DNA from: a virus
IMG/VR virus record: IMGVR_UViG_3300025849_000009
DNA length: 64,000 nucleotides
Strand: one strand, 5' to 3'
Below the pieces are notes generated by a model. It made no database searches and had not been told where the DNA came from. It saw only the letters and a program-made list of their open reading frames with translations. This document shows positions 1-46,150 of the stretch, piece after piece (the stretch's first letter is position 1; every line of letters starts with the position of its first letter). A program made the translations under genes and the position numbers.

Positions 1-772
1 CACCGAATTGCTTAAGATCTTGTACTTGCTCTCTAGTAACTGCAGCAGCAACTTGGAAAGTTTCAGCAGCAACACTTTTAGAGAATAAAGAAAGACCCAT
101 TACTTTATCAGCAGTTCTTTCACCAGCTTCTCTTGACATTGGCTTACCATTAGCGTCAGCACCAGAGAATCCTGGGATATGATCTTCTAATGCAGCAACC
201 AATTCAGCTTTATCGTATCTACCTGCAACGTTCTTTTCAGTTTCAGTGATAGCGTCAACGATTTTGATGATTGATTTTCCGTCAATTCTAGAAGTTCCAA
301 CTTTTACGTCAGCACCTACAGCAATAGAATCTTCATCACCAAACTTGATGTAAGTTGGAGCAGTTGCACCTAATGCAACAGTACCACCTTCGTAAGTAAA
401 GTCTAAGTAAGACAATAAGCCCATAGGACCTGCCATAGGTACAACTGGTACCAAGTCAAGACCGATAGTTTGAGCAGCAACTTGCATTGCCAAAGGCAAT
501 AATGTTGGTGCTTTGTCACCTGAACCAGTATTTGCACCTGCTGCACCGTTAGCCGGAGCACCTGCAGGGAAAGATACTGCACCCATACCTGTTAAGTTCA
601 TTGGGCCAGGGTTGTTAGATAAAGACATGATGTTCGCGTCTTCATAAAGTTTGTGGTTGTGACAGTAAGTCGACATCCACGCTAATTTGCTAGATTCGTT
701 GATACCTGTAGCTTCCGAGATAATCGGTGCCCATGTATTCTTGATCTCAGCTTCGTTTAATAAATTTGCCAT
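1..772 (-). CDS. gp23: Major capsid protein (T4 gp23-like), 5' part; runs off the window
   Basis: Not in the ORF track. Translated by hand from ATG at 772: MANLLNEAEIKNTWAPII...LLPLAMQVAAQTIGLDLVPVVPMAGPMGLLSYLDF, resembling the gp23 VQPMxGPxG region. Directly follows the protease/scaffold gene. Confidence 0.88.
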   Translation of the reverse strand, partial: MANLLNEAEIKNTWAPIISEATGINESSKLAWMSTYCHNHKLYEDANIMSLSNNPGPMNLTGMGAVSFPAGAPANGAAGANTGSGDKAPTLLPLAMQVAAQTIGLDLVPVVPMAGPMGLLSYLDFTYEGGTVALGATAPTYIKFGDEDSIAVGADVKVGTSRIDGKSIIKIVDAITETEKNVAGRYDKAELVAALEDHIPGFSGADANGKPMSREAGERTADKVMGLSLFSKSVAAETFQVAAAVTREQVQDLKQFG

Positions 773-884: not shown

Positions 885-2984
885 TTACTTATTGAACCTT
901 TGTTTGAAAGCATCTGCCATACCTGATACATCATATCCTAATGTTGGTTTAGCTTCTTTCTTAGCTTCAGTTACCATTGCAACTTTTTCTAATTCCACTT
1001 TAGTGTCTCTTAAGTCTCTAGTTTGCCAGAAATTAGCAACTTGATATTCAGTATTTAATGTGTGGTATTTAGATTGTGCGATGATATTATTTTGTTTAGC
1101 TTCAGATAGGTTAGCCCATGCTTCTGAATATTCAGATGGCATAAGAGCAATGAATGTAGGTTGTGTTCCTGCGCTTTCAACAATAAGTTGTGCTTCATTC
1201 ATTACTGACATAATTTCTGATTCTGTCATAAATCCTCTTTTAGAAACGATTCCTCTAACATCTGTTTTAGCAGATTCTGATAATTCGTTATATTTGTTTC
1301 TAGTTGCAGAAGATACTACTTTAAAGAATGAAGGATTTTCATTTTCTTTTTTAGTTGCATTTTCTACTAGTGCGTCTAATTTAGAAGAGATATCTGCTTT
1401 ATAAGCTTCTAATGGATCATGTGCTCCATCTTCACCCTCAGCTTCTTCTTCACCTTCACCAGCCTCAGCTTCTTCAGTCTCGTCTTCGATTTCAGAATCA
1501 GATGTTACAGCATCGTCAGCGTCTTCGTCACCTTCTTTAGCAACTTCTTCACCACCAACGTCGCCTTCTTCTGAATTATCTCCAGCTTCAACTTCTTCGT
1601 CTTCGATTTCTTCAACTTCTTTTCCAGCTTCATCGCTATCTGCAGCAACTGCACCTTCTTCTGAATTATCACCGATGTTTTCTATTTCATCTGTATCTTC
1701 AGCTTCATCTTTATCTTTTGCAGGATCTTCCTCTTCAGTAACTTCTTCGTTATCTTCAGTAACTTCTTCGTTATCTTCACCCGCTTCTTTTGCAACTTCT
1801 TCGCCTTCAACACTATCTGCTGCTTCTACATCTTCTTCTTTATCTTCTTCAGCTTCAACATTAACTTCAACTTCTTCAACTGTTTCGTTTAAAGATTCAG
1901 CAATGTATTCTGCGTATTCGGAAACAGATTGTAAGTTTTCCTTTAAGTATTCAACGTATTCTAATAAAGTATTGTTTGATTCAGCACCTTCGTTATGTGC
2001 TTCTGCTAAATAATTAGCGAAATCTTTAACTTTAGATACTGATTCTGCTAAATGCTCAGTATAAGAAATACCTTGATCTAGTTTTTCAGCAATACTTTCT
2101 GAATAAGAAATAGATTGATCTGTTTTTTCAGCTACGTGTTCAGTATACTGGATAGAGTCATCTAATTGTTCAGCAATATACCCAACATACTCTGTTAAAT
2201 CATTAACTGATTCTACAATGTGGTTATTGTGTTGTGTTAGATTTTCTACTGTGTTGTCACCTGAAGCTGCTTCGTCTTTAGCTTCAATAGACTCTTTTAG
2301 TGTCTTGATCTCATTCGCTAAATACTCAGAGTACTTATTGAAATCCTCAGATTTTACAAATTCTGCCATGTTTTTATTTTCTTTTATTTGTGTGTTTGTA
2401 GTTTTATTTTCAATATTTTCAGTTAAATTAGCTTCACCAACTTCGTATATATAAAGTCCTGTGTCGTTTGAAAAACCATAAGATTCGTTAACTCTCTTTA
2501 ACTCTGCGTTTTCAAAACCAGGGTCAGCTACTAAATCGTATGTAAACAATTGCTTAATTTTTACTTGTCCATTAGATTCAACTGCACCTGCAGCTCTTGA
2601 TGAAATCTGTAAAGGTACACCAGCGTCTACTAAAGCTTTAGCCTGACGACCAGCATCTGTATCTAATAATTTAATACGTCCTCTGACTTCTTTAGAATCT
2701 TTGTCATAAGTTAATTCTTCAATAATGTGAGATACGTTCTTTAAAGAAATATCAAATTGTGCAGGATGATCTAATTCACCCAGTAATTTACTAGCTCCGA
2801 TTTTTTGTTGTAATGCTTCTATCTGAGGAACATATTCGGATTCTGTGTAAATACGGTTATTTTTGTTTTTTTGATCAATTTGACCAAAAACACCCTCCAG
2901 AATGTAGTCTTTATTATCTGATTGAGCAACACTCAATGCAGATGACGACATCTCGACGATCAATAAATCGTTATTATTATTCAT
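885..2984 (-). CDS. gp21: Prohead core protease (gp21-like) fused to an acidic coiled-coil scaffold (gp22-like)
   Basis: LEGVF..KNKNNRIY, LGELDHP, ISSRAAG and YDLVADP protease motifs; then repeated EYxEYxAE helices and a very acidic region; sits between portal and capsid genes. Confidence 0.88.
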   Translation of the reverse strand: MNNNNDLLIVEMSSSALSVAQSDNKDYILEGVFGQIDQKNKNNRIYTESEYVPQIEALQQKIGASKLLGELDHPAQFDISLKNVSHIIEELTYDKDSKEVRGRIKLLDTDAGRQAKALVDAGVPLQISSRAAGAVESNGQVKIKQLFTYDLVADPGFENAELKRVNESYGFSNDTGLYIYEVGEANLTENIENKTTNTQIKENKNMAEFVKSEDFNKYSEYLANEIKTLKESIEAKDEAASGDNTVENLTQHNNHIVESVNDLTEYVGYIAEQLDDSIQYTEHVAEKTDQSISYSESIAEKLDQGISYTEHLAESVSKVKDFANYLAEAHNEGAESNNTLLEYVEYLKENLQSVSEYAEYIAESLNETVEEVEVNVEAEEDKEEDVEAADSVEGEEVAKEAGEDNEEVTEDNEEVTEEEDPAKDKDEAEDTDEIENIGDNSEEGAVAADSDEAGKEVEEIEDEEVEAGDNSEEGDVGGEEVAKEGDEDADDAVTSDSEIEDETEEAEAGEGEEEAEGEDGAHDPLEAYKADISSKLDALVENATKKENENPSFFKVVSSATRNKYNELSESAKTDVRGIVSKRGFMTESEIMSVMNEAQLIVESAGTQPTFIALMPSEYSEAWANLSEAKQNNIIAQSKYHTLNTEYQVANFWQTRDLRDTKVELEKVAMVTEAKKEAKPTLGYDVSGMADAFKQRFNK

Positions 2985-3406: not shown

Positions 3407-4999
3407 TTACATTGCGAATGGATCTTCAGCCTCTGGCTCTTCAGCAGTCTTCTTTTTCAATTTAGATTTAAAGGCTTCATTTGCTCTAATTTCGTCATCA
3501 CTTAATTTAAGATATTTCTTAACTAGGTATTCTTGATCGAAATAATATTCTTCTTCCATAGTCTCTTGGTTAGTTGTCATTAATGAATCTCTCATAGTAC
3601 CAATAAAGTCTAATCGTTTTTCCATTAATTCCATGTCTTTTAATTCTGAGAACACATTCTCTTCATTAAACCTTAAAGCTACCTGTGATTTAAACTGAGG
3701 ATCATTTGTAAACTCAGGATATTTTAAACACATTTGAATAAATAAAGGCTTAGATAAAATTTCCATGAATATAGATCTCAATCGTTTGATAAACTTACCA
3801 AACTTAATTTCATCTCTAATCATACCATCGGCCGCTAAGTTGAAATCACCACCACCATCTTCATATAAGAATCTTGAGTATGGAATTTTTGAAACGTGTT
3901 TTAATTTATCCGAGAAGTATTTAAGAGCTTCTGTATCTGAAAGATCTGGTCCTTCACTGTTTAATGTTTCTATTTCTGGTGAATCACCATCTTTAGAAGG
4001 TAGCCAATATTCTTTACTAAATTGCAACATGGGTTTACCGTCTGTTGCTAAAGTACCTGATTCCCAATCGAAATCTACAGATTCTTTATAAGAATTCATT
4101 AGCTGCGCCAATGATTGTTTAGCCCTAGTTTTAGATTTACCACCTACAGGAATTACAAATTTCATTCTAAATGAAGCGTTGGTCACTGCCCAGATTACTC
4201 TGGTGTGTTCCATAATTCTTAACAAGTTAAATGCTCTCGTTAATCTCTCAATATATGAAACCCTAGATGCCGTAGTTATAGAGGAATAAGAAATGTATAT
4301 AACTTGCGAATCATATAATTTTCTTTCTTTTACTGGATCATCTTTATATTGTACCCAAACTTTTTTACCATCATCGTGGTTGTAACCTGGAATAAGAGTA
4401 ATAGGATCTAATTCTTTAAAACCTATAATTTCTTTTTGGTCAGGGGAATAAATTATTTCAAAAGAAAGATATCCATCAATAAGAAATTTTCTAAAGAAGT
4501 ACCATGCCGATTGATCAGAGTTAAAACCAAAATAATGATAAATTTGTCTGAAATATTTGTTAAGATCTTTATCAACTTCGTCTGATATATCAATACCTAA
4601 TATTTCAGGATAACAGAAAAAGTTTTTTTCATCATATACTATTGTTTCATCACAAAGAATATCTAAGATATCTTCTACTTCATCGTTTAGTGAAAATTTT
4701 CTAAGTTCTTCTCTTTTACCTTCATATGATTGATCAAAGAACGGAATATTAGATCTTAGGTTAGTGTCTGTCATAGACATTGCTGCAAATGCGCCATAGA
4801 TGTCGTCGTTATCAACACCAAATGGATTCATTTGACCATAACCAATTTCTGCTTCCATTGGTCCAATTGCTTGTGATTGTCTTAGGACTAAATCATCATA
4901 TCGCATACCGAACGAGGATAAAGACTTTAATGCATTTGATATGCTAAAAGGCTTTGATCCATTACTCAATGGTCCGTTTCTATCGTTAAATCCTGCCAT
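3407..4999 (-). CDS. gp20: Portal protein (T4 gp20-like)
   Basis: FLIDG, RAFNLLRIMEH, EYWLP..G..EIETL, RDEIKFGKFIKRLR motifs; 530 aa. Confidence 0.93.
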   Translation of the reverse strand: MAGFNDRNGPLSNGSKPFSISNALKSLSSFGMRYDDLVLRQSQAIGPMEAEIGYGQMNPFGVDNDDIYGAFAAMSMTDTNLRSNIPFFDQSYEGKREELRKFSLNDEVEDILDILCDETIVYDEKNFFCYPEILGIDISDEVDKDLNKYFRQIYHYFGFNSDQSAWYFFRKFLIDGYLSFEIIYSPDQKEIIGFKELDPITLIPGYNHDDGKKVWVQYKDDPVKERKLYDSQVIYISYSSITTASRVSYIERLTRAFNLLRIMEHTRVIWAVTNASFRMKFVIPVGGKSKTRAKQSLAQLMNSYKESVDFDWESGTLATDGKPMLQFSKEYWLPSKDGDSPEIETLNSEGPDLSDTEALKYFSDKLKHVSKIPYSRFLYEDGGGDFNLAADGMIRDEIKFGKFIKRLRSIFMEILSKPLFIQMCLKYPEFTNDPQFKSQVALRFNEENVFSELKDMELMEKRLDFIGTMRDSLMTTNQETMEEEYYFDQEYLVKKYLKLSDDEIRANEAFKSKLKKKTAEEPEAEDPFAM

Positions 5000-29734: not shown

Positions 29735-30355
29735 TTATCCGTGTTTCTTAACTATTTTTGTTAATTCATCTAGAGATTTGCTAACATGCTCTCCGAAATC
29801 TGCATGTAAATCATCATCAGTATCTAAAGGTTGCATATCTTTCCACTCTGTGTACTTAGCAATAAAGGCTTCACTTGCATCTACTATTTTTTTAATATCT
29901 GATTTTGCATAATCCTTTCCATAGTAACTATTAGGATCTACATCTTGTCTTGCTGTTTCGTCAGTAAATGGATTTTTAATATCGATACCCTCGTAATCAA
30001 AGCTAAATGCCTCAAATGTTTTTAAATGTTTCATTTTTTTATTTCTTTTCTTTTTCTTCTTGTATTCTTCTTCGGCATCACCTTGGCCAGCCGGCACATC
30101 ACCTGAACCTATTGTTCCATTTCCAGGTAATACGATTGGTCCCATTCCAGAAACATTAGCTATTCCAATATTTTCTTCTACATATTGTGGAAGGCCATCG
30201 TGTTTTGTACTTGCAAAATCTTTGAGTTGTTTAAGAGTCATTGAATCTGCTAATTCTTGTACTTCGGCACTAGCATCTTTTGGATCTAGTTCACCCTTTT
30301 TTAAAGCATATGCCATGCCCATTAATCTTTGTTGTGACTTACTTACAGAAGGCAT
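29735..30355 (-). CDS. DUF3008-like N-terminal domain plus a module with an internal KHLKTFEAF motif
   Basis: MPSVSKSQQRLMG..SMTLKQLKDFASTKHDGLP. Confidence 0.65.
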   Translation of the reverse strand: MPSVSKSQQRLMGMAYALKKGELDPKDASAEVQELADSMTLKQLKDFASTKHDGLPQYVEENIGIANVSGMGPIVLPGNGTIGSGDVPAGQGDAEEEYKKKKKRNKKMKHLKTFEAFSFDYEGIDIKNPFTDETARQDVDPNSYYGKDYAKSDIKKIVDASEAFIAKYTEWKDMQPLDTDDDLHADFGEHVSKSLDELTKIVKKHG

Positions 30356-32190: not shown

Positions 32191-33279
32191 TTAGTGATTG
32201 TTCATTATATCTATTAAATTATTAGCTGTTCCATTATTAAAAGAATAACTTGAGTTTGTTAATCCAATTGTACTATAATTAGTACCTGATGAATAGTCAA
32301 ACATAACACCGCCGTCTGATGAATTATATTCATCTAGTACAAACATTAATTCATAAATTTCTTGAAACATTTTATCTTTAATTTTTGAATCAATTCCACT
32401 ACCACATGTGACTGCAATTAAAAACGTTCTTCTACCACCTGGGTTAAAGTTTGATCTGCCTTGAATTTGTCCACCAACAGTAGATCTCATTGTTCCAGAC
32501 CATCCGCCTGCTGCAGGGACTGAAGATTCCTCAGTTTCATATTTTTTATATTTCTTAATAACTTTAGAAATAGCTTCTGCTAGTTTTACAGCGTTTCTGC
32601 CCTGAAAAATGTCGTAAGAATCTTTTGCAGTATCACCTTGTACCATTAATGGTTCTTTATAACTTGGTAATTTACCTGATTTTAAAGTAGATTCAACAGC
32701 GTTTAAAATCCCACTGTATGAATCTCCCCATTTTTCTACTGCTATTTTAGCAAGCCTAAGCTTGTCTTCTAATTTAGCTTTAATTCCTTTTTTACCAAAA
32801 GACACTGCCTCGTTTACAAATGCTTCGAATAATTTTACGTGTTTAAGTTTATGCGTATTTTGAATTTTAGATTCATTTATATCCATACCGTCCCAATCCC
32901 ATTTGTAATGTTTACCATCAGCAGCAGTACCTAGATAACCATACATTCCTTTTTTAAAGCCATCAAAGAAAATGGCAGCACCATACTCTCCAAGTTCATC
33001 TTGAACATACTCTCTTGCACCGGCTTCATCAAATTCTTCTACAAAAACACCACCTTCTTCAAAGAAGAATAAAATTCCAGATCTTGTGTTAATTGAATCA
33101 CCCTCAAACCATGCGTCATTATCCTCGTCGTATGAATCTCCTTCATCATCTGGATCACCATACATGTCGAAACCCGACCATTGAGATATACCATATGCTA
33201 GTGCTTCTTTTTCTGTCTTAAAGAAATTCATTTGAGCATAATCTCCAGATCTTTCTCTTACGTAAAATATTTTTGCCAT
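32191..33279 (-). CDS. Two-module putative internal head protein
   Basis: N-domain paralogous to 33304-35253; internal KHVKLFEAFVNE. Confidence 0.6.
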   Translation of the reverse strand: MAKIFYVRERSGDYAQMNFFKTEKEALAYGISQWSGFDMYGDPDDEGDSYDEDNDAWFEGDSINTRSGILFFFEEGGVFVEEFDEAGAREYVQDELGEYGAAIFFDGFKKGMYGYLGTAADGKHYKWDWDGMDINESKIQNTHKLKHVKLFEAFVNEAVSFGKKGIKAKLEDKLRLAKIAVEKWGDSYSGILNAVESTLKSGKLPSYKEPLMVQGDTAKDSYDIFQGRNAVKLAEAISKVIKKYKKYETEESSVPAAGGWSGTMRSTVGGQIQGRSNFNPGGRRTFLIAVTCGSGIDSKIKDKMFQEIYELMFVLDEYNSSDGGVMFDYSSGTNYSTIGLTNSSYSFNNGTANNLIDIMNNH

Positions 33280-33303: not shown

Positions 33304-35253
33304 TTACCACGCGTAATCAAATGTTTTGATTTTATTAATTCTATCCTTGATATTCTTAGCATAGTTTTTAGTTTCTCTTTCGTACCAGCTTTCAGCTGCT
33401 CCATATCTTTCTTTAGATTCTTCGCCCTGTCTAACATAATCACAATATCTAGAATAGTCATCTAATATATTTGACATATGATTAGAAGCATCTCTTAATT
33501 TAACAACAGATCCTCTTTTGTTTGTTCCAATCATGATTTCACCATATTTGGTTTTCTCACCTTTTTTTAATCCATTTTGAATTTGTGCAGTTAATTCATC
33601 AATTGCATCTGAGACCATTTTATCTAGTGGCAATTTAGCCGCGTTGTTAGCTAAAATAGTTTCGTATCTTTTCTTATTTTCAGATTTAAAATCATCATGT
33701 GATTTAAATGCTGTAGCTCCTGATTTTGCTGCTGCTCTATCTGCTCTTTTATTTGCAGTTGAATACTTTTGTTGTAATAAATCAACGTTGATAACAATAG
33801 CTCTATCTGCAACTTCTGCAATTCTCTTTACATTGTAGAGTCCAGTTGCATCCCATCCTTTGTATTTTTTACCAATACCTATAGAATCTGTTGGATTATT
33901 ATCTACTGCTTTAAGGTTTCTATCTTTGTTTTTTCCACGGAATCGACTAGTCGATGACCAAACTTGATCATAGAATTTATTACCACCAGAAGTAACAGCT
34001 AATAAATAACCTCCACCTGGGATAGTTTTATTACTTACATATGCATCATAAGGTGCATGTGGATTTTCTTTTTCATTGTCTGAAATATAAAAAATAATAG
34101 AATTTGATTGTTTTGCTTTATATGCAGTTTGTGGGTCTGTAGTAATAAGATCTTCATCTTGTACTTTGTCTAATGCTACTTTAGTAGAACCATAAAATGC
34201 GCTTGCTAAATGTTTGTCTAATTTACCAGATTTTCCTCTAAATAATTCAGCAAGTCTTTGTGAACCGAATGCTTCATTAACTGTTGATTCGTTTAAAGAG
34301 TTAACAAACTCGCTAAATGATTCGTAAATAAATGTTGTTTTGTTTTTTGGTGTTTCCATTTTTATATTTGATGTATTTTCTTTTACTAATTTTGGATTTT
34401 TATTCAAAAGCTCTTCCATGTCTATTTCAGTTAATGACATAAAACTATTTTCTCCATACTTTTTAGATAATCTATCTGCTTTTTTAATGTCTATTACTTT
34501 AGATAAATCGTCATAATCTAAAGTTGCTACTCCAAATTCTCCAAACATTTCTTCCGCCATTGCGTTTGCAACTTTAAAAGGAGTTGCCTTCTCGTTAAGT
34601 GTAACCGCTGTTGATGGAATGATTGATTTTAATATTCTCATACCTGTTTTAGAAAGAGAGATACCATCTTCACTTACGTTAAAATACGCTGTGTTTCTTC
34701 TTAACCATCTTGTAGAATCAGTTGTCATTTCTTTAACAATACTTTTAAATTCTTCTTGGGAAATTTTACCATCTTTAACAGCTTCTAATACTTTATTTCT
34801 AATTTTAGCAGCTTTACCAACAGATTTTGCTGGATGGTTTTCAGTATACTTTCTTTTAACAATTATATTTCTTTCTTCTATAGATTCATTAACCTCACCA
34901 TCTTCAAATTTCCAGGTGTAACCTTTACCTTCTGCACCCTTTTTACTTAAAATCCCATACATACCTTTTTTAAAACTATCAAAGAAAAGGGCAGAATCAG
35001 CTTCTTTTTTTGTATATTTTCTTGCCTCTTTATCGCTATTATGCCCCTGGATGTATGCTCCGTCTTGCCATGTTAGTAAAATGCCAGTGATAGCGAAATC
35101 TCCTTCCCATCGTATATCTTTAACTCGGGCCCATTCCATTTCAAAGTCTGAAAATTGAGATTTGCCATATTTTAATGCTTCTTCTTTTGTTTTAAAGAAA
35201 TTGAACTGCTCACTATCTTTAGTTTTTTTACTTACGTAGTATATCTTTGCCAT
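33304..35253 (-). CDS. Multi-module putative internal head polyprotein
   Basis: Modules separated by VNE, LNE and ESFSEFVNSLNESTVNE linkers. Confidence 0.6.
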   Translation of the reverse strand: MAKIYYVSKKTKDSEQFNFFKTKEEALKYGKSQFSDFEMEWARVKDIRWEGDFAITGILLTWQDGAYIQGHNSDKEARKYTKKEADSALFFDSFKKGMYGILSKKGAEGKGYTWKFEDGEVNESIEERNIIVKRKYTENHPAKSVGKAAKIRNKVLEAVKDGKISQEEFKSIVKEMTTDSTRWLRRNTAYFNVSEDGISLSKTGMRILKSIIPSTAVTLNEKATPFKVANAMAEEMFGEFGVATLDYDDLSKVIDIKKADRLSKKYGENSFMSLTEIDMEELLNKNPKLVKENTSNIKMETPKNKTTFIYESFSEFVNSLNESTVNEAFGSQRLAELFRGKSGKLDKHLASAFYGSTKVALDKVQDEDLITTDPQTAYKAKQSNSIIFYISDNEKENPHAPYDAYVSNKTIPGGGYLLAVTSGGNKFYDQVWSSTSRFRGKNKDRNLKAVDNNPTDSIGIGKKYKGWDATGLYNVKRIAEVADRAIVINVDLLQQKYSTANKRADRAAAKSGATAFKSHDDFKSENKKRYETILANNAAKLPLDKMVSDAIDELTAQIQNGLKKGEKTKYGEIMIGTNKRGSVVKLRDASNHMSNILDDYSRYCDYVRQGEESKERYGAAESWYERETKNYAKNIKDRINKIKTFDYAW

Positions 35254-35278: not shown

Positions 35279-37126
35279 CTATATATTCTTAATAAATTGA
35301 TCGAATGTTAGTGTTGCTATTTCAGTCTCTTCTAAAACTCCCATAGAATCTTCTAATTTAGATTTTAATTCATTATACATATCATGTATCGGTTTTGGTG
35401 TTAGCTTCTTAAATAGCTTCTCATCACCATCTAACATTGCATTTCTTACTTGTGTTGCTGATATATTCTTGCCAGTTCTTGGTATTTCATAAAGTCCAAA
35501 ATCAGTTCTAACTCCAAGATCTTCTCTATATTCTGGTTTATCTACTTGAAATCCATAAGTTTTCATTCTGTCACTTCCGGTTCCCCATAACACTGGTTCG
35601 TATTTTGGCCTCATTGCATTAAACATAGTGTCAATACCGCCCGTTGGAATTACAAAAACTTCTTCAATTGGATATTTAGATTTTAATCTATTAATCATTG
35701 CAACTTGAGTGTCCTCATCATAAGGTCTTTTAAATGCATCTTCTTTTTTCTTTTTCTTAGCCTTTACTAATAAGATTACGACCGGGTGACCATTTTGTTT
35801 ATGAATAGTTTCAACTACTTTAGCATGGCCCAACGTAAAAGGCTGAAATCTACCAACAAACATATTAACTAATTTCTTACCATGTTCTGGGTAATCTACC
35901 TTTAATGCTTCTAAAACAGGAGATTCATTATATTGTAATTTTTGATTTAACAGATATGACTTAAAATTAAGAACATCATTTTCATTTGTTTTTGCCATTA
36001 CTATTGCATCTATACTATCAACTATTTCATTGATCTGCGACATTAAATCTTTATTAATAATATCTGTTTCTTTGTTTCTCTTTTTTCTAAAACTACCCAA
36101 TGCTATTTTATACAATTCTGATAAAATGTCATTCTGTATTAATGATAGTGTTTTTTCATTTGTAATAAAAACTGGATTTAATTTAAAACTTTTGTTTTCT
36201 GAAAAATCCGCAGAATTAAAACTAGCTCCTACATATTTAGAAGCATTCTTTTCAATGTATGCATTAAAGATGTGTGAAATTAATTCAATGTATCGTTCTG
36301 CTGAATCTTCTGATTCTAAAGAAATTTCTTCAAGATTAAACTCTGTAATATACTCTACTAAATCTAATATTGCAATCTGATACATGTCAGATGGCTCTCT
36401 TTTTTTGGCATCCTTCCTGTCAAATCTTTCAAGTTTAAAACTTTTTTGATTTTTACCTTCATAGAAGTTTACTATTAAACCATCTATATCATTATCTAAA
36501 TTAGAATTTAACGTTGGATTATTAAGACCTATGTTAAATATATTAAATATAGCTCTTGTAAAAGATTGATCTTTGAATTTGATTTTAAAATCAGAATCAG
36601 AAAGTTCTAGTAATCTAATTAAGTCATCTTTTTGATTTGATTGTAAAACTCCTTGAAATATAACCGGAGGTTTTTGAACACCTAATAATTCTGACCACTT
36701 ATTTAAGACCTGTGGATCTCTAATAACTTTTTTGATTTGTGTGGGATTTTTAGGATTTAATATTTGTATATGTGTTAGTATTAAGTGATTTTTAGGAAGA
36801 CTTTCATATTCGATATCTACTGTCTTATTGTCAATCATGTAGTCAAATCCGAATTTCCAATCATGTGGCATATCTTCTTTTACATCTTTAGGAATAGCTT
36901 TAAAGTAATTGATACCATTTTCATAGTATCTTACCATAGTTCTATCTACTTTATCCATTTTATGTTTAGAACCACTTTTAAAATATTCATAACCAGTACT
37001 AGTGCTTTTAACATGAAACGAAGATGCTTGTATTTTTTCTGATACAACACATGTTAATTTCAACATTGAATTAAAATCATTAATGTTGGTTGATTGAAAA
37101 TATGTTCTTAAATTTTGTAATGCCAT
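35279..37126 (-). CDS. Degenerate RNA-ligase-like domain fused to a HIGH-family (cytidylyltransferase-like) nucleotidyltransferase
   Basis: SEKIQAS, DGLIV and FKL; GRFQPFTLGH, GSDR, ISATQVR. Confidence 0.7.
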   Translation of the reverse strand: MALQNLRTYFQSTNINDFNSMLKLTCVVSEKIQASSFHVKSTSTGYEYFKSGSKHKMDKVDRTMVRYYENGINYFKAIPKDVKEDMPHDWKFGFDYMIDNKTVDIEYESLPKNHLILTHIQILNPKNPTQIKKVIRDPQVLNKWSELLGVQKPPVIFQGVLQSNQKDDLIRLLELSDSDFKIKFKDQSFTRAIFNIFNIGLNNPTLNSNLDNDIDGLIVNFYEGKNQKSFKLERFDRKDAKKREPSDMYQIAILDLVEYITEFNLEEISLESEDSAERYIELISHIFNAYIEKNASKYVGASFNSADFSENKSFKLNPVFITNEKTLSLIQNDILSELYKIALGSFRKKRNKETDIINKDLMSQINEIVDSIDAIVMAKTNENDVLNFKSYLLNQKLQYNESPVLEALKVDYPEHGKKLVNMFVGRFQPFTLGHAKVVETIHKQNGHPVVILLVKAKKKKKEDAFKRPYDEDTQVAMINRLKSKYPIEEVFVIPTGGIDTMFNAMRPKYEPVLWGTGSDRMKTYGFQVDKPEYREDLGVRTDFGLYEIPRTGKNISATQVRNAMLDGDEKLFKKLTPKPIHDMYNELKSKLEDSMGVLEETEIATLTFDQFIKNI

Positions 37127-38409
37127 TATCTTCCGTATTTTATGATACCCATTAATTGATTAATGGCTGCAAACGTACCTGTTAATTTCATTGTTTTTCC
37201 TTTGTACACAAAAACTATTCCTTCAGTTGGTATAATAGATTCTATTCCTCCAATTCTGTCTAACCTAGCAAGTTCAGCTTCAACCTTTGCGATCTGAGCT
37301 GCACCTCCTGTTTTCTTAATACCTTCAGCTTCTGTTCTTATTTGATCGTGCAACCTTTGCATTTCAGCATCTGGGTTTGCTGCAACAAAATTAGAAGCAT
37401 TCTTAAGGATAATAGAACCCAATTCTAAGAATAAATCCTCAAATGGTCTAATGTTTTCCTTGTATTTTTTCTTAACATCTTCTTTATCAAATTTCTTAAT
37501 AAGAGATGCTTTATCTTTACCTAAATCTTTGTCTAATGATCTTAAGTTTAGTGTCTTTTTATCACCATACGCCCATCTTAAAAGAAGTCCTTCTTTATGA
37601 TCTTGTTCTAAATCAGAAAAGTTTGTATCAATAGTTTCTCTCCACCACATTTCGTGATATCTTGAAACTTGATCATCATCTGATAAACCATAACGATCTC
37701 TTAGTGATTCTACTTGTTTGATAAATTTAGCTTTGTTCTTTTCAAAATCTAAATCTTTTCCTATTTTAATAACTTGAGGTGGAATTACTGTAAATGTTTT
37801 GCCAACATTAATTTTAAGATCTTGCATTGCTTTAGCGATTGATCTTGCTGGTTTGTTATCATCTCCAATAGTATTACCTTCACCGTCAGTTTTCTTTATA
37901 CCATGAAATTGAATAACATCACGATCATAATAGATTACATTAGGATTCTTAGAGTAAATTAACTCCATATTCATAAAGTTTTTACCATTATCAAAAACTT
38001 CTAAATCTTTAGGGGATAATTTATTTAACGAGCTTGCTAAATCTTCTGCAGCAAATTGAAAAGTATCTTGTACTAATGGACTAGCATGTCCTTCAAACTT
38101 ATTCTTAAAAGTAGCAAGGTCCATTGGATTTGCTAATTCAGTTTTATTTCTGGCAAATTTTACTTCTCCATCTTGAACTGTTGCAAATACATTTTGACCG
38201 TCAGTTTTTTCAGTTGCTTCTTCTTCGAAGTTTAGTTCACCATATAATCCTGCTTCAATAATTTTCTTAAAATCACTAAATGTTAAATCTTTCTCATCAA
38301 ATGGATGTGACATGTGACCTGCTGCACCACCTTCTAAAATAAGAGATTCTGGTACACTAATATGTAGTCGTTCAGTTATAAATTCATTAAAATTAGTAAA
38401 GATCTTCAT
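37126..38409 (-). CDS. ATP-dependent ligase-fold protein (DUF6267-like)
   Basis: GHMSHPF, EKTDGQN (KxDG), EGIVF, KLTG. Confidence 0.7.
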   Translation of the reverse strand: MKIFTNFNEFITERLHISVPESLILEGGAAGHMSHPFDEKDLTFSDFKKIIEAGLYGELNFEEEATEKTDGQNVFATVQDGEVKFARNKTELANPMDLATFKNKFEGHASPLVQDTFQFAAEDLASSLNKLSPKDLEVFDNGKNFMNMELIYSKNPNVIYYDRDVIQFHGIKKTDGEGNTIGDDNKPARSIAKAMQDLKINVGKTFTVIPPQVIKIGKDLDFEKNKAKFIKQVESLRDRYGLSDDDQVSRYHEMWWRETIDTNFSDLEQDHKEGLLLRWAYGDKKTLNLRSLDKDLGKDKASLIKKFDKEDVKKKYKENIRPFEDLFLELGSIILKNASNFVAANPDAEMQRLHDQIRTEAEGIKKTGGAAQIAKVEAELARLDRIGGIESIIPTEGIVFVYKGKTMKLTGTFAAINQLMGIIKYGR

Positions 38410-38429: not shown

Positions 38430-40538
38430 TTATTGTCCCAATGAGCTAGTTAACATACCAACTGCAGTACCATAATCTCCATCTGCTTTAGATAAAATAC
38501 CGTCTATAACTTTTTTAGCTTTGGTTTTGTCAAAATCCTCTCCAAATGCTTTTTGCAAAACAGTTATCGCATATTCTTCAAATTCTTCATCCGAATTAAC
38601 TTCTGATTCAGTAACTACTGATTCAAAGTAATCTTCATAATCAGAAACTGAATCCGGACCCCATACATCAGCTAAGACCTTTTCAATATCTTTTCTTTTA
38701 CCAGTTAATTTAACTTCAGGGTAACCATGGTCTCCTTCTTCTTTTTCAACTTCCATTTCAACCCTGTTCTTCTTTAAAGATTGAACTAAAGGTTTGAATT
38801 TAGTTGGGTGGATGCCATCGTCGTTTCCAAATTCTATACCTGAAAGAGAGGCTTCAGTAACTACTGATTCATTGTATAAATGAACATAGTTTTTATTTTT
38901 CTCAGAATAAACTGATTTGATTTCAAATTCTTTTTGTCCTTTTGTATAATATGCTTTAAAGAATAAATTTTCATCAAACTCTCCAAAGAAATGATCTGAT
39001 TTACCGATAAAGAATTCAGCGTTTGGATAAATTTCAAGAACCTCTTCTTTTGTAGTTGCCTTTAAAACCGCGTTATCAAAGTCTTTTACGAATTTAGCTT
39101 CTGTGACTGATTCACTTAATGAATTTCTTAGACCACAGTGTGTACATTCTACTGTTCCATCTTTATCAATTTGCTTATATAGGTGTCCTTTTCTATTAGT
39201 ACACTTAGGTTCGTCTGATTCAGTAACTACTGATTCTTCAATAGTAGCCTCATTATAACTTACAATATCAGAATATTCAATTTCATGTTCTTCTCCGTCT
39301 TGGTCCAATGCAAATATTGTTTTATCTCCCCACATGTCATCATTACTATCGTTGCCATTACCATATGCATAAATAACATACTCTTGTCCGTTTCCTAATT
39401 GAATCATACCATCATCAGCTTTCATAGCTTTCATTAAAGACTTTTTATTATATGATTTCTCATTAAGCGCATCTCCTTCGTCATATGCAAATGACTCAAA
39501 CATATTAAATGCATTTAGTAAAGCTTGACCTGATGCTTCTTCTTTAATACTCTCTAAATAAAGAGCAGTACCTTCAACAATCCCAATTCCTGACCAACCA
39601 GCTGCATTTGCAAGATCACTATAGTGTTTGTCTAAAATTCTTTTTGTAGTAGTAGCACCGATTGTTAAAAAGTGATTACCTAAACCTGCTACTTTTAATT
39701 CAAATGAACCTATTCTACCTTTAATGTTCTTAGATATAACTTTTTCTCTATGAAAGTTAGCATCTGTCATTGCTTCTTCGAAAAGATACTTAATACAACC
39801 TAATGTGCCTACTTTATCCATTGCACCAAAATCTGTTAGTTTCTTAGTAAATAAATTTTTATAGACGGTTAAAACTTTTTTTGCATCTCTTTTATATTGA
39901 ACTGAAATAGCTTCATTTACTGAAGTAGTTAAAGATTCAAATGCTGGATAAACATCATCATATCCTTTACCGTAAATATCTGCCATTAACCATTCTTTAT
40001 TAGCTTCATCCCATAAATATACAAATTCGGCACCGCCATCATTTGCAACATCTCTTAAATATTTAGATATATTGGCAACTTTACCTTTAGATGCTGTAAA
40101 GTTTCCATAATAATTCATCCCTGTTGGATCAGCTTCTAAACCTGAATTATCTCCATTTTTAAGAACAATGTTTAGCGGTGAGCCACCCTTTAAATATGTT
40201 TTCTTAATAAGCGGTAACACGTTTTCAGGATATGAATCATAATGCATGTATACAGAAGTGATATTTCCTCTTTTGTCAATTTTACCAATTTGTCCTCTAG
40301 TTCCTTCTTCGATTAAAACAACAGCTTCATTAATCTCAGCTCCTCTTAATTTAGTAAAAAACTCAATTCTTTGCTCTTCGGTTAATTCTTTGATAGAAGT
40401 AACTTTAAATTCACTAAGTAAATTTTTATACGTTTCTGCTTCAGTAGTTCTTTTAGTAGAATTTTCTTCTTCTATTTGCCTAGATCTATTGATTTGCGAT
40501 TCAGTTGAAAACTGATCAAAAGATTTTAATTTATGCAT
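38430..40538 (-). CDS. Modular internal head polyprotein with repeated ESVVTE linkers
   Basis: KLKSFDQFSTE N-terminus; about 8 unrelated modules separated by xNE/ESVVTE linkers. Confidence 0.65.
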   Translation of the reverse strand: MHKLKSFDQFSTESQINRSRQIEEENSTKRTTEAETYKNLLSEFKVTSIKELTEEQRIEFFTKLRGAEINEAVVLIEEGTRGQIGKIDKRGNITSVYMHYDSYPENVLPLIKKTYLKGGSPLNIVLKNGDNSGLEADPTGMNYYGNFTASKGKVANISKYLRDVANDGGAEFVYLWDEANKEWLMADIYGKGYDDVYPAFESLTTSVNEAISVQYKRDAKKVLTVYKNLFTKKLTDFGAMDKVGTLGCIKYLFEEAMTDANFHREKVISKNIKGRIGSFELKVAGLGNHFLTIGATTTKRILDKHYSDLANAAGWSGIGIVEGTALYLESIKEEASGQALLNAFNMFESFAYDEGDALNEKSYNKKSLMKAMKADDGMIQLGNGQEYVIYAYGNGNDSNDDMWGDKTIFALDQDGEEHEIEYSDIVSYNEATIEESVVTESDEPKCTNRKGHLYKQIDKDGTVECTHCGLRNSLSESVTEAKFVKDFDNAVLKATTKEEVLEIYPNAEFFIGKSDHFFGEFDENLFFKAYYTKGQKEFEIKSVYSEKNKNYVHLYNESVVTEASLSGIEFGNDDGIHPTKFKPLVQSLKKNRVEMEVEKEEGDHGYPEVKLTGKRKDIEKVLADVWGPDSVSDYEDYFESVVTESEVNSDEEFEEYAITVLQKAFGEDFDKTKAKKVIDGILSKADGDYGTAVGMLTSSLGQ
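38607..39236. repeat. Three identical 18-bp in-frame repeats encoding ESVVTE (38607-38624, 38853-38870, 39219-39236) and one degenerate copy (39099-39113)
   Basis: ttcagtaactactgattc read directly. Confidence 0.88.
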
Positions 40539-40571: not shown

Positions 40572-42080
40572 TTATATATCTCCTTCAAAATCTACATTTT
40601 TTACATCATATTTAAATTTCTGTTCCTTGTAGATCCTTTGCCTTTCTTTGGAGTGTCTTATTAGGTAATTATCCCAATCAGGGGAACTTAAATCATCTAC
40701 AAAATCTATAATATTAACCGAGTCTTTAGAGCTATGTTGCCTTAAACCCCTACCAATAGATTGTCTAATAATTACTTCTGATTTAAATGATTCTGTGAAG
40801 AATATGTTGTGAATTTTTTTGATGGATATACCAGTTGAGAATGTACCATATGAAGCGACAATGACGACTTGGTTTCCAGCTTCCATTTTCTTTTTGTGTT
40901 CTTCTCTAATATCTTTATCAATTCCACCATCAACATAATAAACGGATTTATCACTCTCCTGTCTGAGCTTTTCATATATTTTTTTGCCATGTTCAATTCT
41001 ATGAAAAAGAACTAAACTATTACCCTTAACCCTAGATATAATACTTGTTATAAAATTAAGCCTTCCAGGTGAATTGATCACATAGTTTTGCTCAAATTTA
41101 AAAACGTCTTTACTTTCATATCTATTCTGAGACATTTCTCTAAATGCGTCTTTTGTAGATTGAGGTGCATAGTCCATTTTAATTACCTTTACTTTACACC
41201 CTGCGATGTGTCCTTCGTTTTGTAAATAATGTGCACTTATTTCTGTAATTAATGGACCAGTATATGCCATTAACGTTAATCTATCTAACGTGCCTTCTTT
41301 TGGAATAGTTCCAGATAAACCATATTTATAATCTGCATTAATACATTTTTGTAAAATAGTTTTAATAGAGGCTGATTTTGCTTTGTGTGTTTCATCAACA
41401 ATTACTGCATCAAATTCTTCAAAATATGCTTTATCTTTTTTAACAAGTGATTGATATGTCCCAATAATGACATTTCTACCTGCCCTTAATTTTTGACCAC
41501 TATATATTTGTTGTACTTTAATATCTATTGCGTTTCTATAATTATAGTCTAAAAAATCTTCACTAGCCTGTACAACTAATGATACATTAGGTACAATAAA
41601 TAAGATCTTTTTTGCTTTTTGTTGTTCTAGTAAATATGATACTGTTAAGAATGATATTAGTGTTTTACCTGCAGAAGTTGCAAGCTCACTTAAACATCTT
41701 CTAAATTTTAGTATATTAAATGCTGCCTCTATTTGATAATCTCTTGGAGTTATCTCTGACTTTTCGAAAAAGTCTAAAGCCCATTTTGTAAATTTTTCTT
41801 GATTAATATTGGTATCAAACATGTCAGTAATACCATTGAGTTTAAACTCAAATTTATATTCTTTACATATTTGCATGACTTCTCTCCATAATCCTGAAGG
41901 AATCCATTTATCGTCTTTTATATATGAAACATATCCATCCCATAAACCCTTTTTAACCAAAGGATTAAATCGCCATGAATCAATTCTTCTATTTAAAGAA
42001 ATATTGAGTTGTTCCAGTTCTAATTCAGTTGCTTCATCAATACGTAGCAGCTGTTTGTTTTCAGTTAAACTAAGCTCCAC
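40572..42080 (-). CDS. uvsW: SF2 helicase UvsW
   Basis: PRDYQ, ATSAGKT, DETH, GLSGT, STGISIK, QSIGRGLR. Confidence 0.93.
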   Translation of the reverse strand: MELSLTENKQLLRIDEATELELEQLNISLNRRIDSWRFNPLVKKGLWDGYVSYIKDDKWIPSGLWREVMQICKEYKFEFKLNGITDMFDTNINQEKFTKWALDFFEKSEITPRDYQIEAAFNILKFRRCLSELATSAGKTLISFLTVSYLLEQQKAKKILFIVPNVSLVVQASEDFLDYNYRNAIDIKVQQIYSGQKLRAGRNVIIGTYQSLVKKDKAYFEEFDAVIVDETHKAKSASIKTILQKCINADYKYGLSGTIPKEGTLDRLTLMAYTGPLITEISAHYLQNEGHIAGCKVKVIKMDYAPQSTKDAFREMSQNRYESKDVFKFEQNYVINSPGRLNFITSIISRVKGNSLVLFHRIEHGKKIYEKLRQESDKSVYYVDGGIDKDIREEHKKKMEAGNQVVIVASYGTFSTGISIKKIHNIFFTESFKSEVIIRQSIGRGLRQHSSKDSVNIIDFVDDLSSPDWDNYLIRHSKERQRIYKEQKFKYDVKNVDFEGDI

Positions 42081-45781: not shown

Positions 45782-46150
45782 TTACAGTTTTTTACCTAGA
45801 GCAGCACCTAATGCGGCGCCTACAAGTCTAGAAGTTAGTAAATCATAAAATACACCTTTTTGGATACCAAGAACTTTTGCTAGCATTTTACCAATAGATT
45901 TCCCTAAAGCAAAACCTGTAAGTCCACCAATAATCGATCCAAAGAAACCTTCATTAGTCATCTCTTCATTAAGTCTCTCAATATCATAAGAACCATCTTC
46001 GTTTTGATATTCTGAGGCAAAAGATTCTAACGCCGCATCTATTTTCTCTTCTAACTCTGGAGTCCAAGTTTCTTGAAGTCCCTCATTAATAAGTTCTAAA
46101 TCCTGTTCGTTAACAGCGTTTTCAATTAAATATGTATTAAATGTTTTCAT
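45782..46150 (-). CDS. Putative virion protein: targeting motif, acidic pro-region, glycine-zipper membrane segment
   Basis: MKTFNTYLIE...TNE-GFFGSIIGGLTGFALG...GAALGAALGKKL. Confidence 0.6.
   Translation of the reverse strand: MKTFNTYLIENAVNEQDLELINEGLQETWTPELEEKIDAALESFASEYQNEDGSYDIERLNEEMTNEGFFGSIIGGLTGFALGKSIGKMLAKVLGIQKGVFYDLLTSRLVGAALGAALGKKL

Follow-up and report, generated by a model that had tools for sequence, protein, structure and literature searches.

A candidate polyprotein of T4-type internal proteins with modules exchanged in frame at an 18-nt connector

IMG/VR virus record IMGVR_UViG_3300025849_000009 contributed the 64,000 nucleotides (nt) of DNA analysed here, which we call the window. 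At 38,430 to 40,538 on its minus strand lies an open reading frame (ORF), P0001, whose product reads as a chain of small modules, several of them joined by the connector peptide ESVVTE. We propose that this gene probably encodes a polyprotein of internal (capsid cargo) proteins of the T4 type, which would be released by the prohead protease and ejected, and whose connectors are also sites of recombination; the proposal was drawn from sequence comparisons and structure models. The window belongs to a distant T4-type myovirus, an uncultured marine phage.

Architecture of the polyprotein

The frame of 702 codons is uninterrupted and has no start codons at the module borders. A leader and eight modules, M1 to M8, were distinguished; amino acid (aa) positions refer to the polyprotein, and an arrow marks the junction.

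38430..40538, minus strand: polyprotein ORF (P0001), 702 aa, 79 kDa, isoelectric point (pI) 4.9
40500..40538, minus strand: leader, aa 1-13, MHKLKSFDQFSTE, with the pattern of the T4 capsid targeting sequence (CTS), aromatics three residues apart, then x-x-E
40305..40499, minus strand: M1, aa 14-78, helical, C-terminal end LIEE↓G
39912..40304, minus strand: M2, aa 79-209, alpha/beta, match to phrog_1987, C-terminal end FESLTTSVNE↓A
39459..39911, minus strand: M3, aa 210-360, mostly helical, pI 9, C-terminal end ALNE↓K
39219..39458, minus strand: M4, aa 361-440, predicted small beta-barrel, net charge about -16, connector copy 1 ESVVTE (39219-39236) at its end
39099..39218, minus strand: M5, aa 441-480, C/H/CxxC zinc-ribbon-like, low model confidence, degenerate ESVTE (39099-39113) at its end
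38853..39098, minus strand: M6, aa 481-562, connector copy 2 (38853-38870) at its end
38607..38852, minus strand: M7, aa 563-644, match to phrog_5922, connector copy 3 (38607-38624) at its end
38433..38606, minus strand: M8, aa 645-702, three-helix, almost always the final module (...MLTSSLGQ)

Most modules are acidic. The ESVVTE peptides start at aa 435, 557 and 639 and the degenerate ESVTE at aa 476. A first-pass annotation of the same DNA had described a linker identical three times plus one degenerate copy, and the 18-mer GAATCAGTAGTTACTGAA was indeed found exactly three times (38607-38624, 38853-38870 and 39219-39236, all on the minus strand), beside the ESVTE copy; two of the three are identical across 23 nt. 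The sizes given there for the last four modules (35, 76, 76 and 58 aa) were correct after subtraction of the connector. Among the ends proposed for the earlier modules, LIEE (aa 78), SVNE (aa 209) and ALNE (aa 360) were retained as borders, but YNE was not a border of its own: in the window it lies at aa 428-430, just ahead of the first ESVVTE, and it forms the junction in the relative P0034.

A whole-protein AlphaFold2 model, built on an alignment of 70 sequences, gave a predicted template modelling score (pTM) of 0.29, and M1 was modelled as a long helix. The predicted local distance difference test (pLDDT) fell below 50 at aa 70-78, 202-209, 348-361, 431-451, 471-485, 555-561 and 641-644, which are the module borders, and was 80-93 inside M2, M3, M7 and M8. 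A separate model of aa 79-360 had a pLDDT of 85.6, with its sole dip at the border between M2 and M3. Because the confidence collapsed at the borders, we divided the chain into the leader and modules M1-M8. We concluded that the modelling shows a string of eight independently folding modules, as the first-pass annotation had supposed, and no fold of the whole chain as a single unit.

Matches in PHROGs were limited to M2 and M7, both to families of unknown function. No match to the polyprotein was obtained in scans with Pfam and PADLOC, or by tblastn against 50,697 phage records. A profile search against PDB sequences returned a lone match of M1 to a protein-A helix, which was judged spurious. 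When the whole model was compared with solved structures by Foldseek, nothing was found below E 0.001; weak local matches, reported without the query range, were to small barrels of about 60 residues of the Sm/DUF903 type, and we assign these to M4 because it is the only all-beta module in the model. The best hit to a model of M2 and M3, searched with Foldseek and wide with VIA-align, was a generic helical arrangement at Z 4.7, and a search of the ESM Atlas with M2 returned unnamed viral clusters only.

Two other ways of obtaining several products from one gene were considered and rejected: internal translation starts, as the borders are without start codons, and a frameshift or 2A-like skipping, as the frame is continuous and the motif unrelated.

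Exchange of cassettes among relatives

Relatives of the polyprotein in marine metagenomes number more than 1,100, on contigs of up to about 255 kb. The comparisons of modules drew on 240 relatives and 44 related loci from IMG/VR. When 120 homologues were cut at the connector and the resulting pieces were clustered, we obtained a common core, about 30 cassette families and the 58-residue module, which was near-invariably terminal. The order of the cassettes was 3-4-2-1 in the window and elsewhere 3-4-5-1, 4-1, 2-2-3-1, 8-3-4-2-1, 2-6-1, 9-4-3-1 or 3-5-4-12-1, and the N-terminal modules were likewise permuted in some relatives. In locus L042 (about 1380-1440, plus strand) M8 (...LTSSLG) has a connector and then an M4-type cassette behind it, so that a C-terminal place is not obligatory for M8.

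The breakpoints were examined by blastn. Homology between the window and L004 stopped with the last base pair of a connector (nt 1688 of the gene) and restarted with the first base of the connector that follows (nt 1914/1915); the cassette between them is unrelated. One cassette was cleanly deleted across a shared connector in L001, while in L010 the M7 cassette was duplicated and the M5 cassette relocated. The cassettes of L010 were 90-95% identical to those of the window, the core only 85% and the flanking genes 78-82%. In L006 identity to the window was 94-97% in the flanks, 90% in the core of the polyprotein gene and 80% in the next gene. We list the mosaic of identities in these two loci in support of our proposal, as an apparent arms-race signature. 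The gene order primase, p140, UvsW, polyprotein, ligase-like gene, cytidylyltransferase fusion, p649 was retained in about 40 loci.

By comparing the loci we showed that the modules behave as cassettes, which are gained, lost, duplicated, reordered and exchanged between different genes. The first-pass annotation had expected module gain and loss at the linkers and had proposed that the linker doubles as an in-frame recombination site. Module content proved not to be fixed, with a swap, a deletion, a duplication and a moved cassette at connectors, and the second idea was borne out by the position of the breakpoints, by the codon homogeneity of the connector and by the same DNA in other genes.

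It might be argued that an assembly or gene-calling artefact had fused separate small genes, and some modules do occur elsewhere as separate leader-led genes. Against this, the 702 codons are open without internal starts at the borders, and dozens of independent contigs, taken from different metagenome samples, share the architecture with conserved synteny. We regard an artefact as hardly credible.

The connector as DNA

In dinucleotide-preserving shuffles the mean number of matches at up to 3 mismatches was 0.10, and none of 100 shuffles reached 4. Codon usage was determined from 56 connectors in 34 non-redundant genes and compared with the background in the same genes. The Ser was encoded by TCA in 91% (background 37%), the first Val by GTA in 92% (34%), the second Val by GTT in 96% (62%) and the Thr by ACT in 100% (57%). 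As a control we took the core of the same genes, in which 38 conserved columns hold residues of fourfold or sixfold codon degeneracy (S, V, T, A, G, L, P, R); there the major codon had a mean share of 0.70 (range 0.38-1.0), and in the control columns of Ser, Val and Thr (n=8) its share was 0.38-0.91. No exact probability is given for the codon uniformity, because the samples share ancestry.

With up to 2 mismatches allowed, the 18-mer was found in the 44 loci in 83 copies in the main gene and 23 copies elsewhere. Each of the 23 outside copies reads in frame as ES-x-V-[TN]-E on the coding strand, one example being in a downstream gene of L034 with an M6-type cassette. Thus one DNA connector joins cassettes in several genes. 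We concluded that these counts and codons show conservation of the connector at the DNA level, and that, as far as the loci compared here reveal, exchange crosses both phage lineages and different polyprotein genes, always in frame. The 18-mer was also examined as a hairpin or palindrome, with arms of 6 nt and a spacer of 2 nt, and rejected as such, since the common ESVVNE variant disrupts the arms.

The 18-mer might instead serve mainly as a signal in the DNA, recognised perhaps by a site-specific nuclease or recombinase that moves the cassettes, and be translated only incidentally. Synonymous positions more uniform than at conserved residues elsewhere would fit such a signal, as would the core TCAGTA-GT-TACTGA, which is an inverted repeat of 6+6. 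The variants ESKVNE, ESLVTE and ESVINE, however, alter the DNA and break the inverted repeat but retain phi-x-E↓A, and the borders LIEE↓G and SVNE↓A obey the same protein rule in quite different DNA. Furthermore, the 18-mer was never out of frame or on the other strand in the 44 loci, and no dedicated recombinase was seen beside the gene. We therefore consider a primary DNA signal improbable.

The junction rule and the prohead protease

Junction contexts were collected from module starts projected by BLAST, without any motif search. Position P1 was Glu at M2 in 40/40, at M3 in 33/34, at M4 in 20/20, at M6 in 35/36, at M7 in 33/33 and at M8 in 90/90 distinct contexts; the M5 junction was left unscored, as its start was poorly projected. 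At P3 we found V, I or L in 205 of 213 contexts at M2, M3, M4, M7 and M8 and in 34 of 36 at M6. P1' was mostly Ala, Gly or Ser (Ala 72%, Ser 11%, Gly 5% of 229 contexts). The remaining positions of the connector varied more, and junctions as dissimilar as LIEE↓G and SVNE↓A kept the same rule. Judged by these contexts, the rule V/I/L-x-E↓A/G/S is the published cleavage logo of gp21. The specificity of gp21 is L/I-X-E and was first found at a Glu-Ala bond (PMC9026906).

The motif phi-x-E↓[AGS] occurs 11 times in the polyprotein against 3.7 ± 1.9 expected from composition, an excess of about threefold. Six of the 11 are exactly on borders, three are at most 7 residues away and two lie inside a folded module; the motif is concentrated in disordered linkers. 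The presumed cognate protease is encoded in the window.

885..2984, minus strand: protease-scaffold fusion, 699 aa, first third of the gp21 family (Peptidase_S77)

This ORF matched PF03420 at E 1.9e-10, phrog_207 at E 4.7e-44 and, by BLASTP, T4 gp21 at E 4e-10. At the His and Ser motifs, LGELDHP aligned with T4 LGELNHP and ISSRAAG with VSSRGLG. The remainder of the protein resembles an acidic scaffold: aa 266-363 hold six Y-x-E-x-[IVL]-A-E repeats, and a tract of about 150 residues is rich in Glu and Asp. In T4, gp21 and gp22 are separate genes.

A chain with many predicted cut sites could also be a scaffold or core protein like T4 gp22, gp67 and gp68, which are of this type, and whose pieces leave the prohead to make room for DNA without a role as cargo. 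The core proteins of T4 are cut into many fragments by gp21 and then expelled (PMC9026906), and the long helix of M1 and the acidity of the chain are as in scaffolds. The pieces here are nevertheless folded and globular and vary in number, order and identity among close relatives, which a size-determining scaffold would not tolerate; the window, moreover, already has its protease-scaffold fusion. A role as scaffold has in our view only a small probability.

Leader and connector at the same border

T4 ipII and ipIII start with MKTYQEFIAE↓A and ipI with MKTFKEFTSTTTPVSTITE↓A (NC_000866). In the T4 CTS, residues 4 and 7 govern targeting and residues 8 and 10 processing (PMC9026906). The polyprotein leader resembles this sequence, the likeness being one of pattern only. 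Seven ORFs of the window carry the leader pattern, with MHKLKSFDQFSTE, MKIFTNFNEFITE, MKHVKLFEAFLNE, MKHVKLFKQYVNE, MKIIKTFSDFISE, MKTFNTYLIE and MKHVKLFEAFVAS.

In seven shorter metagenomic proteins M7 is preceded by MKH[VI]KL[FY]EEFTSELNE↓ASLSGI, and its first residue after the leader is the same as after ESVVTE↓ASLSGI in the window. In two proteins the connector itself ends the leader (MKIVTSFNQFVNESTVTE↓A and MKKVKLFEEFIGESLVTE↓A). Two neighbours of the polyprotein contain similar internal junctions.

32191..33279, minus strand: two-part neighbour, 362 aa, internal leader copy KHVKLFEAFVNE↓A (aa 145-157) serving as connector
33304..35253, minus strand: multi-part neighbour, ESTVNE at aa 322-327 and VNE↓S at aa 122

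The second half of the two-part protein stands alone as a leader-led gene in L030, L002 and L006, and the first module of the multi-part protein is missing from most orthologues. We take the interchangeability of leader and connector at an identical cassette border to be the decisive link for reading these sequences as putative targeting signals of the CTS type.

When the connector is aligned on its final Glu, a hydrophobic residue at -6/-7 is followed by E-S-V-V-T-E. In our own reading this matches the T4 CTS core Y-Q-E-F-I-A-E in length and hydrophobic pattern, and each connector could itself serve as a targeting signal. Because of this shared length and pattern, the single packaging signal per chain that was proposed in the first-pass annotation may be too narrow.

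The connectors could alternatively be flexible tethers, kept for domain swapping in an uncleaved multidomain protein that acts as a polyvalent chain of 79 kDa in the cell or the virion. Polyvalent phage proteins of 2-15 domains are known, some of them packaged unprocessed (PMC5512222), and recombination at the connector is demonstrated, whereas cleavage is predicted. A tether, however, has no need for an invariant Glu with V, I or L two residues before it and Ala, Gly or Ser after it at six types of junction. Nor does it call for the same cassette to start at the identical residue after an N-terminal leader that ends in Glu, or for a motif identical to the logo of the window's own protease. 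We consider the uncleaved chain unlikely and prefer a polyprotein cut by this protease.

Other leader-bearing genes of the window were noted. The protein of 29735-30355 (minus strand) has an internal leader copy MKHLKTFEAF at aa 107; it and the protein of 32191-33279 look like in-frame fusions of two leader-led genes. The gene at 37126-38409 (minus strand) encodes 427 aa with the CTS-like leader MKIFTNFNEFITE and a KxDG-like EKTDGQN, which recalls ligase/capping nucleotidyltransferases. This possibly packaged enzyme has no Pfam match and is only 78-80% identical between phages that agree to 94-99% in the flanking genes. The product of 45782-46150 (minus strand; 122 aa) combines the CTS-like leader MKTFNTYLIE with a C-terminal, membrane-like glycine-zipper segment and is possibly a packaged, membrane-active protein.

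Genomic setting and expression

The G+C content of the window is 32% and every gene is on the minus strand. Its nearest sequenced phages are uncultured huge phages (portal 55% identical to LR756500), phage PAU and the Lak phages. Besides the following two head genes, the window encodes gp2-, gp4- and gp15-like proteins and a UvsW helicase.

2..772, minus strand: Gp23 capsid protein, N-terminal part
3407..4999, minus strand: T4-like portal
40572..40580, minus strand: promoter-like GATATATAA, 42 nt upstream of the polyprotein start, overlapping the last UvsW codons

The motif GATATATA[AT] was found 14 times in the window, in every case between genes and on the coding strand. A start codon follows 13 of the copies at a distance of 12-65 nt, and the 14th lies about 100 nt before the capsid gene; sites on the minus strand are, for example, 40580, 30937, 10133, 5031, 3391, 3016 and 874. 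The motif precedes the genes for capsid, protease-scaffold, portal, tail, the gp15-like protein and other large structural proteins, and also three leader-bearing small proteins and the polyprotein ORF. From its placement it is probably the late promoter of this phage, which suggests late co-expression of the polyprotein with the structural genes. The T4 late promoter TATAAATA is a related but different sequence.

About 30 nt from the motif to the start (GATATATAATAAAATAATAACACATAAAAAA) are near-identical before the polyprotein (40580-40539) and before a leader-bearing gene of 179 aa (30937-30897). This common stretch suggests a shared regulatory or recombination unit. A further neighbour, at 35279-37126 (minus strand), encodes 615 aa, of which about 400 residues are of unknown function and are joined to a cytidylyltransferase-like domain (NMNAT-type); in related loci this gene always comes directly after the ligase-like gene.

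Discussion

In the mechanism that we propose, the T4-like leader, and probably each CTS-like connector too, would direct the chain to the scaffold core inside the prohead. The serine protease of the gp21 family would then cut after the Glu of each V/I/L-x-E↓A/G/S junction and so set free eight folded proteins, small (4-18 kDa) and mostly acidic. These would stay among the DNA and be ejected with it into the host; pieces of this size from a chain of 79 kDa would suit passage through the tail channel. Once ejected, they would most plausibly inhibit host defences, as T4 Ip1-3 do. All three of the latter inhibit GmrSD type IV restriction enzymes specifically and have only the leader in common (PMC12373910). 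An anti-defence role of the modules is the weaker part of our proposal and was drawn by analogy. Release by the prohead protease inside the capsid had been inferred in the first-pass annotation too; this part of its reading gains indirect support from the fit of all borders to the gp21 logo, the gp21-family protease of the window, the likeness of the leader to the T4 CTS and the interchange of leader and connector at identical borders. As the comparison of loci showed, homologous recombination at the connector adds, deletes, duplicates, reorders and exchanges cassettes in frame. With a connector that both releases and recombines, the gene would therefore act as a reshufflable, equimolar array of cargo.

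Several observations weigh against this proposal. No module matched a known anti-defence protein, a Pfam family or a solved fold. The motif phi-x-E is short and the polyprotein is rich in Glu. We infer the specificity of the window's protease from T4, and the T4 gp23 cleavage position aligns to a Glu-free stretch of the phage's own capsid protein. In many orthologues the leader has no Glu at position 13 (e.g. MAKLQSFSDFSTF and MKKLNSFAEFSAAK), and is therefore not always removable there. The conservation of the upstream motif is not independent evidence, because of its overlap with UvsW coding sequence. Finally, the gene lies between replication genes (UvsW and primase), outside the head cluster. 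The ip genes of T4 are scattered too.

We also considered a more far-reaching reading, to which we give somewhat less than an even chance. The connector would be dual-coded, as a signal for capsid targeting and protease release and as an 18-nt crossover, and a marine clade would pool cassettes through this integron-like in-frame device to inject combinatorial anti-defence sets in fixed stoichiometry. Such a pool would consist of dozens of small cassettes that could be plugged into any of several polyprotein genes.

Among known systems, T4 IPI, IPII, IPIII and Alt have in common with the array a leader with aromatics three residues apart and an end of the form hydrophobic-x-Glu↓Ala. The T4 internal proteins are likewise small unrelated passengers, from a hypervariable locus outside the head cluster in a genome with a gp21-family protease. 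No sequence similarity of the polyprotein to any T4 internal protein was found, and none in the cultured-phage collection. T4 has one passenger and one leader per gene, whereas up to eight or more passengers occur in one chain here, and the processing motif of the window array is repeated internally and conserved at the DNA level.

Polyvalent proteins (PMC5512222) resemble the array in having many unrelated effector domains per chain, variable content and predicted delivery with the DNA, but lack a uniform connector. They have large enzymatic or DNA-binding domains, often their own metallopeptidase (MPTase), and a MuF/portal or type IV secretion system (T4SS) context (PMC5512222). Domains, a peptidase and a context of that kind were not found here: Pfam, PADLOC and PDB gave no match to a module, and the neighbours are UvsW and the ligase-like gene.

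In PeSL shuffling of T4-type genomes (PMC2839356, PMC4122927) short conserved flanks similarly act as recombination mini-homologies in hyperplastic regions. The PeSL units, however, are intergenic promoter-terminator (stem-loop) elements that move whole genes, whereas the 18 nt described here are coding and keep one frame. In phiKZ and SPN3US (PMC5694885, PMC10052503) many head proteins are cut by a diverged gp21-like protease, behind a Glu in a short motif, and ejection proteins are abundant; the propeptides are removed from individual proteins, and no in-frame array of cassettes with a fixed connector has been reported.

MARTX toxins are secreted by bacteria and carry an in-chain cysteine autoprocessing domain, which cuts at Leu-specific sites. 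They too are beads-on-a-string effectors that vary among strains and are cut apart after delivery or assembly, but the protease of the window is separate and the setting is a phage prohead.

The CTS, gp21 processing, diverse internal proteins and shuffling at mini-homologies are thus known from T4-type phages (PMC9026906, PMC3012670, PMC2839356). What is new is an in-frame array of small passengers with an internally repeated processing/targeting motif, and the role of this motif as a DNA crossover across genes and lineages. In the literature searched we found no description of such an array.

Our proposal predicts new N-termini at defined residues. If it is true, the cassettes would supply candidate inhibitors of defence by the dozen, small, foldable and of unknown fold, and the array would offer a route to phage capsids with multiple cargoes, extending the single-CTS packaging already used in T4 engineering. 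Internal proteins, once injected, belong to the phage molecules that host immunity meets first, and exchange of their cassettes at the connector would explain the rapid diversification of this first-strike arsenal in large marine phages.

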